Positions 1 to 26,069 of a DNA stretch of 26,069 nt are shown here, piece by piece. The DNA lies in contig JBDRHP010000060.1 of NCBI GenBank assembly GCA_043816785.1, positions 1 to 26,069 of the forward strand. The letters run 5' to 3'. The position numbers were made by a program, and so were the translations under genes. How positions within the stretch are numbered: the first letter of the stretch is position 1; each line of letters begins with the position of its first letter. The DNA comes from Candidatus Margulisiibacteriota bacterium. Lineage in GTDB: Bacteria > Margulisbacteria > WOR-1 > O2-12-FULL-45-9. The notes beneath the pieces are model-generated. The model did no database searches. It saw nothing but the letters and a program-made list of their open reading frames with translations, and was not told the origin of the DNA.

Positions 1-127
1 GCACCTAAAAGGAAAACAAGAATGGCTCATAAGCCCCAAATTAGCACAACAAATGGCATAGGAAAGACTCTGTCCATGAAACCGCGACGTTTAGTCGCAG
101 GTTTCATGAGTGTTATTGGACACCCTC
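1..127 (+). mobile_element. Right end of an IS1182-like insertion sequence (partial): end of an ORF, subterminal hairpin and right terminal inverted repeat GTTATTGGACACCCTC (112-127)
   Basis: 112-127 is the exact reverse complement of GAGGGTGTCCAATAAC (25931-25946), which precedes an IS1182-like transposase start. Frame 2 reads HLKGKQEWLISPKLAQQMA* (2-61), plausibly the transposase C-terminus. Confidence 0.7.
75..108 (+). repeat. Bulged hairpin repeat, right type (GTTTA loop)
   Basis: CATGAAACC-GCGAC-GTTTA-GTCGC-A-GGTTTCATG; core identical to the copies at 5355 and 8532. Confidence 0.9.
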
Positions 128-187
128 CTTTGGGAGAAGGGCATTAAATAGTAAATAAAGATTAAAGAATAAATTGGGATGAGGGCA
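128..187. repeat. Half of a palindromic repeat (CTTTGGGAGAAGGG...GGGATGAGGGCA), putative IS target
   Basis: Both motifs occur as reverse complements at 25883-25930 with a different spacer. Confidence 0.65.
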
Positions 188-5316: not shown

Positions 5317-5348
5317 ATGGAGCCTGAGACTGAACGTCTCGGCTCCAT
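5317..5348 (-). repeat. Bulged hairpin repeat, left type (TGAAC loop on + strand)
   Basis: ATGGAGCC-T-GAGAC-TGAAC-GTCTC-GGCTCCAT. Confidence 0.88.
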
Positions 5349-5354
5349 AAGTGC

Positions 5355-5384
5355 AGGAACCGCGACGTTTAGTCGCAGGTTCCT
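5355..5384 (+). repeat. Bulged hairpin repeat, right type
   Basis: AGGAACC-GCGAC-GTTTA-GTCGC-A-GGTTCCT. Confidence 0.9.
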
Positions 5385-5399
5385 ATTAAGGGAGCAGAA

Positions 5400-7403: not shown

Positions 7404-7429
7404 TAACCTGCGGCTGAACGCCGCGGTTA
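7404..7429 (-). repeat. Bulged hairpin repeat, left type
   Basis: TAACC-T-GCGGC-TGAAC-GCCGC-GGTTA. Confidence 0.85.
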
Positions 7430-7464: not shown

Positions 7465-7511
7465 GAGTTGCGACGCCGCGCCTGCCAGCAGGCAGGGTTA
7501 GTCGCAGGCTC
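7465..7511 (+). repeat. Right-type hairpin interrupted by a 21-nt palindromic insert (7476-7496)
   Basis: GAGTT-GCGAC-G[CCGCGCCTGCCAGCAGGCAGG]GTTA-GTCGC-A-GGCTC. Confidence 0.8.
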
Positions 7512-7513
7512 CG

Positions 7514-7915
7514 GTGATGTTCATGTACTACCACTATATTTTCAGAACCTATAAGAAGAAATCTAGTCTGTTATTGCCTGAATTTAAGACAAAATTAGGC
7601 GGTGATTTTGTAAATATCGCTCAGGAAAAAGGCTTTAATCTCATTGCTCATGCGATTCTGGAGGATCATGTCCATATGTTGGTTAAACAGCTTGAGTCGG
7701 ACAAAACTGATTATGTCATGCGCATGTTTAAGGGTATATCTTCTCGAAGATTCTTTCAGGAATATCGATCGAATCCTTTTGAGCATTGTAAATTATAGGG
7801 GAGGGGCTATTATGCCCGTGTAATTACTGAAGAAGAGGTTCCAAAAGTGATAGAATATATAAAGAACCAGATTGGAGCCGATGGCTATGATAAAAGGCAT
7901 TCAACAATTAAATAA
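7514..7915 (+). pseudogene. tnpA: IS200/IS605-family Y1 tyrosine transposase with in-frame TAG at 7796-7798
   Basis: YHYIFRT, DHVHML (HUH) and FKGISSR motifs; the frame continues past TAG as KL*GRGYYARVITEEEVPKVIEYIKNQ... to TAA 7913-7915; TAG sits at the conserved Trp of LWxxxY. Confidence 0.88.
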
Positions 7916-7928
7916 TATTCAAAAGGAC

Positions 7929-7964
7929 AATTGGAACCGCGAGGTTTACTCGCAGGTTCCAATT
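7929..7964 (+). repeat. Bulged hairpin repeat, right type
   Basis: AATTGGAACC-GCGAG-GTTTA-CTCGC-A-GGTTCCAATT. Confidence 0.9.
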
Positions 7965-7976
7965 TGGTGAGTAATC

Positions 7977-10487
7977 ATGGCTGATCTGACCCCCATGGCA
8001 AAACAATATCTTTCCATCAAAGAAAAGCATCAGGATGCTATTCTCTTTTTCCGTTTGGGAGATTTCTACGAGATGTTCTATCAAGATGCTGAAGTCGCTT
8101 CAAAAGAGCTTGACCTGGTCCTGACTGGTCGGGGGAAAGATGACCACCGGATGCCGATGTGCGGCATTCCTTACCACGCTTCGCAAAATTATATTGCCCG
8201 TTTAATTGATAAAGGATACAAAGTAGCCATCTGCGAGCAGGTTGAGGACCTGCCTGCCGGCAGGCACGGCCCCAAAGAGGCTAAGGGAGTGGTGAAACGC
8301 GAAGTTGTCAGGATCGTTACCCCGGGAACGGTTATTGAAGCGCATCTTTTAGCAGAAAAAGCCAATAACTATTTGTTAGCCATTACCAGGGAGAAGAATA
8401 AATACGGCCTGGCATATGTTGATGCCTCAACCGGGGAGTTTAAGGTAACAGAGCTTGAAACCGAGGGAAAATTGTTGGATGAAGTTAACCGCATCAATCC
8501 TTCTGAGATTTTGCTGTCTGATATGATTCCGGAGGAACCGCGACGTTTAGTCGCAGGTTCCTCTACAGTTTCAGAATTTAAGGACACCTATGATTCTGAA
8601 GCTGCTGAAGAAAAACTTAAGCAATTTTTTAAAGTTAAGTCGCTTGATTCTTTCGGCCTAAACGCCGTGAAAACCAGCTGGGGAGCGGCAGCAGCTATCC
8701 TGGACTATCTTAAGGAAACGCAGAAGACCAGTTTGGACCAGATCAACCAGATCAAGCCCTATCAAACTTCTCATTTTATGTTTATTGACGCGGCCACCAG
8801 GCGCAATCTCGAGCTTGTCCAAACCATCAGAGACAAATCATACAAAGGCTGTTTGCTCTGGGTGCTGGACAGGACAAAGTCGTCGATGGGCGGACGTTTG
8901 CTGCGGCAATGGATACTGCAGCCGCTGCTTGACGCAGCACAGATCAATCAGCGTTTGGAGGCGGTTGAAGAGCTTTATAACAACGCGATACTGCGCGCTG
9001 AACTCGGGCAGGAGATCAACAATGTTTCGGATATTGAGCGGGTTGTTGGACGCATAGCTTCCGGCACTGCCAATGCCAGGGATTTGATCGCGCTTAAAGA
9101 TTCCTTGAGACTTTTGCCCAAACTTAAAAGCCTTATGTCTAAAGTCCAAAGTCAGCTGCTGCAGCAGCTGGGCCGGCTCCCAGATTTTACTGGGATTCTT
9201 GATCTGATAACCAGATCAGTTGTTGATGATCCGCCTTTTGCTTTAAAAGACGGCAACTTGATAAAACAAGGGTTTGAAGCTGAACTTGACCAGATCAAAG
9301 CCGCGGCTCGTGAAGGTAAGGCCTGGATCGCTCAGCTGGAGAATGAAGAAAGAAAACGCACCGGGATCAAATCGCTTAAAGTCGGTTTTACCAGGGTTTT
9401 TGGCTATTATATCGATATAACCAGATCAAACCTTTCTCAGGTGCCGGATAATTACATCAGAAAACAAACCTTAGTAAACAGTGAACGATTTATCACTCCC
9501 GAGCTCAAGGAAAAGGAATCACTGATCCTTAACGCAGATGAGCGCTTGAAGGAAATGGAGTACAAGGTTTTCTGCGATGTTCGCTCCAAAGTTGCTGAAC
9601 AAACTTCTGAACTGCAAAACCTGGCGTGGGTCCTGGCCCAAATTGATGTTTTGCTGTCTTTAGCTGAGGTCGCAGTTGAAAACCATTACAGCAGGCCAAA
9701 AATCCAAAAATCTAAATCCGGAATAAATATTATTGAATCAAGACATCCTGTAGTTGAAAAAGTGCTGGGAGAGCATCGGTTCGTTCCCAATAATGTTGAA
9801 ATGGATGAAGCAGCCGGGCGTTTCCTTTTGATCACCGGGCCTAACATGGCTGGAAAATCGACCTACATGCGTCAGGTGGCTCTTACTTGTTTGCTGGCCC
9901 AGATCGGATCTTTTGTCCCGGCAAAAGAAGCTGAGCTCTGCCTGGTTGACAGGATCTTTACCCGCATTGGCGCCATGGACGACATTTTCTCCGGCCAGTC
10001 AACTTTTATGATGGAAATGACCGAGACAGCCAATATCCTGAATAATGCAACTGACAAGAGCTTGATCATTCTTGATGAGATAGGGCGGGGGACTTCAACC
10101 TTTGATGGCATGTCGATCGCCGCGGCAGTGGCTGAATATATACATACTAAGATTGGAGCAAAGACTTTGTTTGCCACCCATTACCATGAGATCACCCAGT
10201 TAGTTGATAAGCATCCAGGCATGGAAAACCTGAATGTTCTGGTTAAGGAAGAGGGAGATCATGTAACTTTTCTGCACCAGATCGTTAAAGGGCCAGCGGA
10301 CCGGTCTTATGGGATCCAGGTGGGTAAACTTGCCGGTCTGCCTGCTGAAGTAATTAAAAGAGCCAAGGAGGTTTACTCAACTTTGGAAATGGTTGAAAGC
10401 GATCTGGGGAAAATTAAAAGCTCCAGGCCAAAGGCCAGAGGCCAAAAGGCCAAGGGTGCTGAACAGGAACAAGTTAGTTTATTTTAG
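7977..10487 (+). CDS. mutS: DNA mismatch repair protein MutS
   Basis: TPMAKQY, FRLGDFYEMF, TPGT, TGPNMAGKSTYMRQ, DEIGRGTST, FATHYHE, SYGIQV. Confidence 0.98.
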   Translation: MADLTPMAKQYLSIKEKHQDAILFFRLGDFYEMFYQDAEVASKELDLVLTGRGKDDHRMPMCGIPYHASQNYIARLIDKGYKVAICEQVEDLPAGRHGPKEAKGVVKREVVRIVTPGTVIEAHLLAEKANNYLLAITREKNKYGLAYVDASTGEFKVTELETEGKLLDEVNRINPSEILLSDMIPEEPRRLVAGSSTVSEFKDTYDSEAAEEKLKQFFKVKSLDSFGLNAVKTSWGAAAAILDYLKETQKTSLDQINQIKPYQTSHFMFIDAATRRNLELVQTIRDKSYKGCLLWVLDRTKSSMGGRLLRQWILQPLLDAAQINQRLEAVEELYNNAILRAELGQEINNVSDIERVVGRIASGTANARDLIALKDSLRLLPKLKSLMSKVQSQLLQQLGRLPDFTGILDLITRSVVDDPPFALKDGNLIKQGFEAELDQIKAAAREGKAWIAQLENEERKRTGIKSLKVGFTRVFGYYIDITRSNLSQVPDNYIRKQTLVNSERFITPELKEKESLILNADERLKEMEYKVFCDVRSKVAEQTSELQNLAWVLAQIDVLLSLAEVAVENHYSRPKIQKSKSGINIIESRHPVVEKVLGEHRFVPNNVEMDEAAGRFLLITGPNMAGKSTYMRQVALTCLLAQIGSFVPAKEAELCLVDRIFTRIGAMDDIFSGQSTFMMEMTETANILNNATDKSLIILDEIGRGTSTFDGMSIAAAVAEYIHTKIGAKTLFATHYHEITQLVDKHPGMENLNVLVKEEGDHVTFLHQIVKGPADRSYGIQVGKLAGLPAEVIKRAKEVYSTLEMVESDLGKIKSSRPKARGQKAKGAEQEQVSLF
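8249..8269. repeat. 21-nt palindromic mini-insertion in mutS (adds LPAGRHG)
   Basis: CCTGCCTGCCGGCAGGCACGG; removal restores EQVEDPKEAKG; reverse complement matches 7476-7496 at 19/21. Confidence 0.88.
8532..8563 (+). repeat. Right-type hairpin repeat in-frame within mutS (EEPRRLVAGSS)
   Basis: GAGGAACC-GCGAC-GTTTA-GTCGC-A-GGTTCCTC; 30 nt identical to 5355-5384. Confidence 0.92.
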
Positions 10488-16164: not shown

Positions 16165-16203
16165 TTATTAATTTGGTATATTAGCTGATAAGGGAGATTG
16201 TAT

Positions 16204-17208
16204 ATGAGAAAATATATTTTATTCTTCATTATAATGTTGACCGGCAGCGTGTTGATTTTTGGTTGCACGACAACTTCTGTGGCTCCTACGACCACAACGA
16301 CTCCCGGTTCGACAACTACCACCACTGCCGGAGGAAGCGGGCCAACGGCTAAGCCGGATTCGACAGTCAGGCTATGTTTTATTCATCATTCCAGCGGAGG
16401 GAATTGGCTGGTAAACAGTTCCGATGATCCGACTGTTGGCGGGGACCTCGGCTTAAATTTGAACGCAAATAATTATTACGCAACAGAAACAGATTATGAC
16501 TGGGAAGCCCAGCCTGGGGATGCCTTGGGTTATAACACTGATCTTGGTTTCTGGACCGCCTGGTTTAATACAGCCAAGATGCCCTATGTCTACGCGAATA
16601 ATTCTCATTACTATTATACCAACACAATTAGTGATCCTGGCGGAGAAAACCAGATTGTAATATTTAAGTCGTGTTTTCCCAACAGCAACTTGTATGGCAA
16701 TCCGACTGACGCGGCTGCCACTGGCGCCACCAATCCTATTGAGGGACAAAATGCCGGGATTGGGGCTGGACAGTCCGCGGATTATACTGTGGCAAATGCC
16801 AAGTGGGTTTATAATACACTCCTGGCATATTTTGCCACAAAAACCAATAAGCTGTTTGTGGTTGTTACGGCACCTCCTTTAACTTCGGGCAATTACGCGG
16901 GATCTAACGCGGCAAATGCCAGGGCTTTTAATAATTGGCTGGTGAGCGATTGGTTGAGCGGTTATTCGCACAATAATGTGGTGGTGTTTGATTTCTTCAA
17001 TGTTTTAACCGGCGCGGATAATCATCATCGATGGTCTGTTAGCGCTGTGCAGCATTACACAGCTCCCGGGAGTTCCAATGCCGCGTATTATCCCACCGCT
17101 TCTGACGGAAGCGATGATCATCCCAATTCAAGCGGCAATCAAAAAGCGACCGCTGAATTTGTGCCGCTTTTAAATTATTATTACAATAGGTGGCAAGGTC
17201 TCATTTAA
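16204..17208 (+). CDS. Putative lipoprotein with Thr-rich linker and possible SGNH-like hydrolase domain
   Basis: Lipobox LIFGC, TTTTTPGSTTTTT, FIHHSSG, FKSCFP, VVTAPP, DDHP near the C-terminus. Confidence 0.65.
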   Translation: MRKYILFFIIMLTGSVLIFGCTTTSVAPTTTTTPGSTTTTTAGGSGPTAKPDSTVRLCFIHHSSGGNWLVNSSDDPTVGGDLGLNLNANNYYATETDYDWEAQPGDALGYNTDLGFWTAWFNTAKMPYVYANNSHYYYTNTISDPGGENQIVIFKSCFPNSNLYGNPTDAAATGATNPIEGQNAGIGAGQSADYTVANAKWVYNTLLAYFATKTNKLFVVVTAPPLTSGNYAGSNAANARAFNNWLVSDWLSGYSHNNVVVFDFFNVLTGADNHHRWSVSAVQHYTAPGSSNAAYYPTASDGSDDHPNSSGNQKATAEFVPLLNYYYNRWQGLI

Positions 17209-21751: not shown

Positions 21752-22711
21752 ATGAACAAATATCTTATTGCTTTCTTGGCCATTATTGTTACGGTTGTTG
21801 TTGGTTCAATAATAATTGTTGGTTGCCAGACAAATGTAACAACTGGAGATGTTACGACAACCTCAAGCACTACTACCACAACAGGGGCAGGCACTACTAC
21901 CACAACAGTAGCAGGCACTACTACCACAACAACTACCACCACTACGACAACCACGGTTTTGGGTATTTCCGGAACAATCACTGACTATGGAGGGGCTGAA
22001 CCCCAGCTTACGGTATTAGCTTTTTCTAATTGGGAAGATGACCCCACGGCGGAAACAAGTGCCAGCGTTTCCGGTACGCAAGCGAACTATAACTTAACCG
22101 TGGCAGCTCCTGGCAATTATTATGTTGTTGCTATTGACTTTGATCCGAATGGTGCCGGCGAACCTACTGTTGGCAGATACGCTGGTATATATGGCTATTC
22201 CGGGACTGACCCGATTGAGGCGGCGGGGAGTTCGGCAGCTTTGGTTCAGGTTGCTGCTGCCCAAGGTGCCTCAGTAACAGTTGCTTCAGTTGCCACGGCT
22301 AATTTTACCATGCATCCAATTATTGCTGGTACGCCTGACATCACTGGAACAGTTACTTGGACTACTGGGGAGGCCGGTTTAATTTTTGTGGGATTGATGA
22401 CAAGTGAAGCCGGTGAGGGGGGACCTGAAAATAGTGCTAGCGCAATCGTAGATGCCGGAACAACGACCTATGATTATTCTTTATCTGGCGTGTCAAATGG
22501 CACCTACTATATCCTTTCTATTTTGTATCCAGGAACCACAGAAGCAGGTGGTCCGCCACCTTCGGGGTCTCAGTGTGGAATATATTCTGATGGTTTACTT
22601 CCAGGGGCTTGGGGAGGATCTGGCACACCGCAGCCAGTTACTTTTGAAGGTACACCCTTAACTGGCCTTGATTTTCATTTAAATGATAGTTGGCCTGTTT
22701 TTGGGCCTTAA
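21752..22711 (+). CDS. Putative lipoprotein with long poly-Thr linker and two similar beta-sandwich domains
   Basis: GGGAG RBS; lipobox IIVGC; ISGTIT..PGNYYVVA..GIYG repeated as ITGTVT..NGTYYILS..GIYS. Confidence 0.75.
   Translation: MNKYLIAFLAIIVTVVVGSIIIVGCQTNVTTGDVTTTSSTTTTTGAGTTTTTVAGTTTTTTTTTTTTTVLGISGTITDYGGAEPQLTVLAFSNWEDDPTAETSASVSGTQANYNLTVAAPGNYYVVAIDFDPNGAGEPTVGRYAGIYGYSGTDPIEAAGSSAALVQVAAAQGASVTVASVATANFTMHPIIAGTPDITGTVTWTTGEAGLIFVGLMTSEAGEGGPENSASAIVDAGTTTYDYSLSGVSNGTYYILSILYPGTTEAGGPPPSGSQCGIYSDGLLPGAWGGSGTPQPVTFEGTPLTGLDFHLNDSWPVFGP
21867..21931 (+). repeat. Coding tandem repeat, 24-bp period
   Basis: GCACTACTACCACAACA at 21867, 21891 and 21915. Confidence 0.85.
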
Positions 22712-25882: not shown

Positions 25883-25930
25883 TGCCCTCATCCCCGCTGG
25901 AGTAGAGGTCAACGCCCCCTTCTCCCAAAG
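25883..25930. repeat. Half of a palindromic repeat (TGCCCTCATCCC...CCCTTCTCCCAAAG), putative IS target
   Basis: Reverse-complement counterpart of 128-187. Confidence 0.65.
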
Positions 25931-25944
25931 GAGGGTGTCCAATA

Positions 25945-25986
25945 ACCTCAAGAAACCGGCGAATGAACTTCGCGGTTTCTTGAGGT
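25945..25986 (-). repeat. Bulged hairpin repeat, left type
   Basis: ACCTCAAGAAACC-G-GCGAA-TGAAC-TTCGC-GGTTTCTTGAGGT. Confidence 0.85.
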
Positions 25987-26008
25987 AAAATTGAGGTGAG
26001 GTGAATAA

Positions 26009-26069
26009 ATGAAATTTAAAGATTACAATCAAAGACAACAGTGGTTAATCCCGCCGAATATTGAAGATG
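26009..26069 (+). CDS. IS1182-family transposase, N-terminal fragment (truncated by window)
   Basis: MKFKDYNQRQQWLIPPNIED matches the F..Y.Q.Q..L.PP...D N-terminus typical of IS1182 transposases; only 20 codons visible. Confidence 0.7.
   Translation, partial: MKFKDYNQRQQWLIPPNIED

Follow-up and report, generated by a model that had tools for sequence, protein, structure and literature searches.

At the ends of IS200/IS605 elements, the hairpin, the guide, and the cleavage site lie on one strand and do not form an inverted pair. Y1 enzymes are reported to bind hairpins in a strand-specific manner, in an account that also describes the spread of REP-like repeats within and between genomes as poorly understood (PMC8266576). 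The Y-x-x-x-Q motif is assigned to the IS200-like subclass 1.1 (PMC6006769), and the layout features of REP/RAYT systems used for comparison below are those given in three accounts (PMC6006769; PMC3337134; PMC3733652). Insertion sequences (ISs) are also linked to palindromic repeats as targets: IS1397, IS621, and IS1594 insert into REPs (PMC3184786), and IS1272 is described as using inverted-repeat targets with no duplication, with palindrome targeting cited for some IS1182 members (PMC5678879). In the literature searched (subscription reviews and ISfinder lay outside its scope), no description was found of a DDE IS that carries REP-like hairpins within each of its ends.

An IS1182 element at the contig ends

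The DNA analyzed here (the window; 26,069 nucleotides) comprises the entire contig C60 of an incomplete genome (G000). An earlier note, made from the sequence alone, had described an IS1182-like DDE element with hairpins inside its terminal inverted repeats (TIRs) at the two window ends, and the family assignment is borne out by the proteins. The stub of the open reading frame (ORF) at 26009 (20 aa), correctly taken as the start of a transposase, is the N terminus of a 497-aa protein, P0005, and a stub at 2-61 (19 aa plus stop) is the C terminus of the same protein. P0005, which was reached by a homologue search starting from a relative in genome G025, scores 393.5 bits against the IS1182 model NF033551 (cut-off, 270). 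The G025 relative scores 383.3 bits against the same cut-off and has DUF772 and DDE_Tnp_1_6 domains; a relative 83% identical to it carries the NCBI label Margulisiibacteriota. Plasmid matches annotated as IS1182 show only ∼30 to 32% identity. The full-length copy that the note had called for was recovered from metagenome contigs: locus L026 codes for P0005 at 100% identity and is 1,638 bp long, with perfect 16-bp TIRs bounding a single 497-aa ORF and a 5-bp direct repeat. A PF13751 search of the genome gave no match to the transposase body, because the interior of the multicopy element is unassembled; a scan of the genome contigs with a single protein likewise gave no match.

The genome has six left and six right IS ends, all at contig ends and with identical interiors. 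The 5-bp flanks of the two window ends differ, and the ends are therefore separate insertions, two copies of one element, so that both do belong to the same kind of element, as the note's reading required, but come from different copies of it. The contig depth in X1 (60.7, compared with 6 to 10 for most flanking contigs) is compatible with several copies, although it does not give a copy number. The 26-kb contig was also considered as a composite transposon or a circle, a reading that was rejected because the flanks differ and the interior consists of housekeeping genes. The features at the two ends are the following:

25884..25930, + strand: target half-site from another palindromic repeat family, split at the 3-nt loop (same context at 12/12 ends; 11 empty sites)
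25931..25946, + strand: left TIR of an IS1182 copy, 16 bp (identical in the 6 genome left ends; exact reverse complement of 112..127)
25945..25986, − strand: left subterminal hairpin, a REP-like host repeat in reverse orientation abutting the TIR (z = −8.7; profile score 35 bits, 0/200 shuffles)
25986..25991, + strand: −10-like hexamer, part of a putative promoter for the transposase gene, 17 nt past the hairpin-loop hexamer (conserved in the left-end alignment, including the hairpin-less L034; without a consensus-scan call)
25993..26003, + strand: Shine-Dalgarno-like GAGGTG, two overlapping copies (invariant in 16/16 aligned left ends)
26009..26069, + strand: IS1182 transposase gene, 5′ stub (first 20 aa match P0005; NF033551)
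1..61, + strand: transposase gene, 3′ stub, second copy (last 19 aa match P0005)
75..108, + strand: right subterminal hairpin, a forward copy of the repeat present at the left end (z = −8.2; core identical to 8 free copies)
112..127, − strand: right TIR (reverse complement of the left TIR)
128..186, + strand: other half of a target palindromic repeat, second insertion (same context at 12/12 ends)

Both hairpins are present where the note had placed them. The left one overlaps the inner edge of the left TIR by 2 nt and folds at −18.9 kcal/mol, which none of 200 shuffles equaled, and the right one, 3 nt inside the right TIR, folds at −14.3 kcal/mol. They are not separate left and right types, as had been supposed, but members of one family in opposite orientations.

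Target site and mode of movement

All 12 genome ends have exact TIR junctions with the same target repeat. The insertion point is the 3-nt loop of a different, unrelated palindromic repeat family, of which the genome retains 11 empty sites. Duplications of 4 to 5 bp are found at 9 of the 19 loci tabulated (10 counting L040); several full loci, e.g., L016, L023, L024, L027, and L044, lack one, and the 12 flanks of the G000 IS ends contain at most three duplication-consistent pairs. Mismatched flanks and absent duplications may mean that there are more copies, that copies have rearranged with each other, that the assembly is mixed, or that insertion is IS1272-like. Movement by the element's own DDE transposase, acting on the 16-bp TIRs, fits every insertion seen. 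Neither a copy lacking TIRs nor an empty TIR-hairpin-TIR shell was found at the 12 genome ends, in a TIR scan of 146 genomes, or among the contigs listed for four runs, a search for Y1-moved products that is limited by the tendency of contigs to drop rare variants. Together with the 12/12 exact TIR junctions, this outcome leaves the hybrid element with two possible mobilization routes, which the note had entertained, without positive support.

Joints that skip the interior, seen in the contigs of the four runs, were examined as candidate excision products and rejected; they are free doublets of the repeat, with short sides and other or unknown letters between them. In genome G143, a bare IS1182 TIR stub (L221:588-603) lies in the usual target repeat and is followed by a different element with ends that are, by eye, IS481- or IS3-like.

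The hairpin family in the host

By pattern, the genome contains 106 copies of the hairpin, 94 free and 12 IS borne. These copies are mostly intergenic, imperfect palindromes in high copy number, as is typical of REP-like sequences, with no Rfam match at the gathering level. Free doublets are almost always arranged reverse-forward (28, compared with 1 forward-reverse), and free single copies show no orientation bias (6 forward and 5 reverse between codirectional genes, on crude ORF calls). The hairpin has a GG or GGA foot, after which the bases vary, and no GT(A/G)G 5′ tetranucleotide; this foot is kept in 88 of the 94 free copies and lost in the IS copies of the genome. No conserved guide tetranucleotide was seen flanking the family. 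In free copies, the stems are lengthened by paired bases that vary (2.1 bp, compared with 0.6 bp in shuffled sequences). Compensatory changes in the outer stems were accordingly rejected as proof of IS-specific selection; since free copies show stem covariation too, such changes are a family trait. The host copies and the associated gene in the window are the following:

5321..5390, strand not assigned: free reverse-forward doublet between pheS and pheT (fold and pattern; gene names from translations)
7405..7428, − strand: reverse hairpin upstream of the Y1 gene (family pattern)
7514..7915, + strand: Y1 (HUH) transposase gene, IS200-like Y-x-x-x-Q (PF01797, 49 bits; TAG codon in frame at 7796-7798, ahead of the catalytic Tyr)
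7928..7965, + strand: forward hairpin downstream of the Y1 gene (z = −9.6)
8530..8566, + strand: free single hairpin copy inside a mutS-like ORF (fold; ORF translation)

The genome has five Y1 genes, two of which are flanked by the hairpin: one intact, on contig C10, and the other that at 7514 in the window. Across the class, 14 of 30 Y1 loci have the hairpin on both sides, reverse upstream of the gene and forward downstream of it. The intact host Y1 protein exceeds the cut-off of the IS200 model NF033573 (69 bits; cut-off, 55), scores below that of the REP-transposase model NF047646 (48 bits; cut-off, 80), and has the motif Y-x-x-x-Q rather than NP, so that it does not classify as a RAYT. Given this IS200-like protein and the lack of a GTAG foot, the hairpin is REP-like and not a canonical REP. 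Three other Y1 genes of the genome, on contigs C16, C49, and C99 (L185, L186, and L187), have NP motifs, and each has its own flanking palindrome family, of which the one at C99 has a GTAG foot. The closest relatives of the Y1 gene at 7514-7915, L189 (75% identity) and L190 (64% identity), apparently lie at the same place before mutS, which suggests vertical inheritance of the gene.

The hairpin pattern occurs in 43 of 146 genomes, 43/65 within the class and 0/81 outside it. The element itself is found in two genomes; one further genome has a TIR stub, and another has a single isolated match to the TIR. The note's suggestion that the IS is the source of the hairpin family is therefore contradicted, because the spread of the repeat far exceeds that of the element.

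Several other repeats and genes were observed along the way. The mutS-like ORF contains two palindromic repeats (8249-8270 and 8530-8566), neither of which disrupts its frame, and other small palindromes are nested in loops of the hairpin family at 7470-7510, in the left end of L027, and in L183. Eleven viral contigs (L234 to L244) have one exact match each to the hairpin pattern. The window also encodes predicted secreted proteins or lipoproteins with Thr-rich N-terminal linkers (1425-2783, 16198-17208, and 21752-22711), the last of which has a 24-nt tandem repeat.

Hairpins in related IS1182 elements

A hairpin profile was built from 92 free copies and used to score 27 loci, namely, 26 of the closest among the 160 relative loci found, plus L016; L047, a near duplicate of L046, was omitted. 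A second scan for relatives yielded mostly distant Paenibacillus elements, whose ends are outside the scored set. By this profile, 14 of the 27 loci have a significant left hairpin and, of the 19 whose right end could be scored, 12 have a significant right one, so that 12 loci have it at both ends, 2 at the sole assembled end, and the other 13 at neither. The check that the note had proposed, on whether all copies and related ISs have the hairpins, thus comes out as 12/12 genome ends and 14 of the 27 loci scored. The hairpin-bearing loci form two supported clades, with sister clades that lack the hairpin; the tree gives no decision on one shared origin for the two. L042 and L043 nest within the hairpin-bearing clades, but their hairpins are not significant and have been lost, and degenerate or interrupted hairpins are found in the right ends of L031 and L044 and the left ends of L035 and L027.

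Conservation was assessed in 16 between-lineage pairs with 50 to 60% amino acid identity, among which identity at four-fold sites is 0.24 to 0.37, i.e., saturated. The hairpin cores are 0.70 to 1.0 (left) and 0.65 to 1.0 (right) identical in the same pairs, compared with 0.39 to 0.56 for the neighboring inner spacer. The hairpins are thus retained far above the neutral expectation and, with four-fold sites saturated, this retention requires either selection or renewal. Together, TIR and hairpin form an imperfect terminal repeat of ∼55 bp, in which the distance from the element end to the hairpin loop varies from 32 to 43 nt.

The two ends of an element resemble each other more than they resemble the ends of other elements. 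The outer segment of the left end is 0.79 identical to that of its own right end and 0.70 identical to the right ends of other elements; for the spacer only, TIR excluded, the values are 0.63 and 0.49 (11 elements), with a permutation p of 2e−5, or 2.4e−4 without L030, in a permutation that ignores relatedness. The left end of L030 is a perfect copy of its own right end up to the hairpin core, and L025 and L033, with transposases from different clades, are identical over an 81-nt left end, although L025, L030, and L033 could be assembly chimeras. Exchange between the ends explains the inverted pair without two captures. Hence, of the symmetric capture that the note had listed, the capture is supported, and the symmetry is attributed to end-to-end copying instead. 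L029 and L030 are inserted at one site and have the same 4-bp duplication, but their interiors are reversed relative to each other, the crossover falling inside the 24-bp hairpin core.

Independent capture by an IS1380 lineage

Among 48 other DDE loci screened, three show the pattern: the G025 element, L272 (with two mismatches), and L266. The last is an IS1380 element (264.7 bits; cut-off, 180) in which the hairpin lies flush against the right TIR (L266:419-2046, G006). Within the five loci of this lineage, the hairpin is found inside the right end in three, with a partial match at a contig end in one and truncation in the other; by eye, it is present in 0 of 4 left ends. The three right-end loci are L266 and L291 (both G006) and L289 (G036), and the hairpin is flush with the TIR in two of them. 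The 33-nt hairpin of L266 is the reverse complement of the left hairpin of the IS1182 locus L044. These right-end-only hairpins imply that capture into IS ends is recurrent and that a one-ended state exists.

Origin and role of the hairpins

We consider it about an even bet, or slightly better, that an IS1182 element captured the host repeat, duplicated it from one end to the other, and is mobilized by its own DDE transposase, with the hairpins perhaps being kept for transposase expression. An IS1182 ancestor would have acquired the Y1-associated REP-like hairpin just inside one end, and sequence exchange between the ends probably made, and still maintains, the inverted pair and its ∼55-bp terminal repeat. 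The hairpins would not be required for DDE transposition, and every jump would add two further copies of the repeat. The left hairpin may occupy the −35 region of the putative transposase promoter: the spacing from its loop to the −10-like box is 17 to 18 nt in 13/13 left ends (12 by script and L016 by eye, L027 being excluded because of an insertion), compared with 3/85 free copies. The left hairpin thus keeps register with this box rather than with the TIR, suggesting that it acts in expression. However, the box is present in the hairpin-less L034 and so predates the hairpin, and the fixed spacing may be plain inheritance; in addition, the consensus scan made no promoter call, and the loop hexamer matches TTGACA at 3/6 positions at best. 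The right hairpin, 3′ of the stop codon as at the Y1 genes, may also act in expression; the terminator scan called only the 5-bp inner stem of the left hairpin and nothing at the right one.

The main rival is neutral renewal, because IS cores switch among host variants and free copies share the stem covariation. Here, the hairpins would be useless passengers of the IS, refreshed by the host repeat machinery (Y1, conversion from the ∼100 free copies, and arm-to-arm templating) and decaying in hosts without the family, which we regard as quite possible but not probable. Left cores do switch among free host variants, even between L025 and L028 (95.7% DNA identity), free copies also have extended stems, and the hairpins of L042 and L043 have decayed. 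Conversely, a 4-nt-loop variant that is rare in the genome (3 copies; the 5-nt loop has 97) has been kept at the left ends of five loci from three clades and occurs in none of 12 right ends, and the loss of the GG/GGA foot from the IS copies is contrary to fresh replacement. A role for the hairpins as subterminal binding sites co-opted by the IS1182 transposase would account for their conservation and for the extension of the terminal repeat at both ends, but it is very unlikely, given the variable end-to-loop distance and the hairpin-less relatives L034, L038, L041, and L043, which share the same TIRs and 4-bp duplications. An origin of the family in the IS ends, for which the 12 IS-borne copies among 106 can be cited, is extremely unlikely: apart from the imbalance in distribution, Y1 genes are flanked by free copies, the hairpin is missing from more distant IS1182 relatives, and the left IS variant is absent among the free cores.

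A second route of movement, in which the host Y1 enzyme excises or moves the hairpin-to-hairpin cassette as a giant REP doublet (REPIN) besides the DDE route, is unlikely. It is suggested by the reverse-gene-forward order, which is that of the free doublets and of the Y1 loci (14/30), by the intact Y1 gene above the IS200 cut-off in this genome, and by the L030 crossover within the 24-bp core. End-to-end copying, however, yields an inverted pair automatically, so that the order is only a one-in-two coincidence. Moreover, no TIR-less copy or shell was found, strand-specific Y1 binding to an inverted pair would leave one bindable form per strand, and both the missing guide tetranucleotide and the altered foot of the genome's IS copies weigh against this route. 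A bolder extension of the capture reading is doubtful: DDE elements of the class would repeatedly recruit the Y1-associated hairpin, IS1182 at both ends and IS1380 at one, the host Y1 enzyme would still bind or nick it, regulating transposase expression or driving exchange between the ends, and the IS would both amplify the repeat and transport it from host to host. If true, DDE and HUH systems would be linked in both directions.

An active DDE element thus bears 12 of the 106 copies of a host repeat, and a second IS family has independently captured the same hairpin. Carriage by DDE elements may be an overlooked route of repeat spread, one that needs no Y1 enzyme. If the hairpins are neutral, the element is a modest structural curiosity. 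One IS, one hairpin, and one Y1 protein make a compact, testable system, and the relatives provide a set of elements with two ends that evolve in concert.

Comparison with known systems

The element resembles the IS1182 family (NF033551), to which IS1272 belongs, in its DDE transposase above the cut-off, its 16-bp TIRs, and its palindromic targets, and differs in carrying a host repeat hairpin inside both ends and in the 4- to 5-bp duplications at 9/19 loci. Subterminal hairpins at both ends, along with a host Y1 protein that passes NF033573, recall IS200/IS605; however, the IS has no Y1 gene (its only long ORF encodes the DDE transposase), has TIRs and duplications, and holds its hairpins as an inverted pair. 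It is therefore a member of IS1182 and not of IS200/IS605. IS1397, IS621, and IS1594 present a similarly close link between an IS and a palindromic repeat, but the relationship is reversed here, the repeat being inside the IS, which in addition targets a second, different palindrome family. The many intergenic bulged hairpins, mostly in inverted doublets and flanking a low-copy Y1 gene, are those of a REPtron (RAYT with REP/REPIN). In contrast to a REPtron, the family lacks the GTAG foot, the Y1 protein falls below the REP-transposase cut-off (48 versus 80), and a DDE gene lies between the hairpins with TIRs outside them, so that the element resembles a REPtron in layout only.
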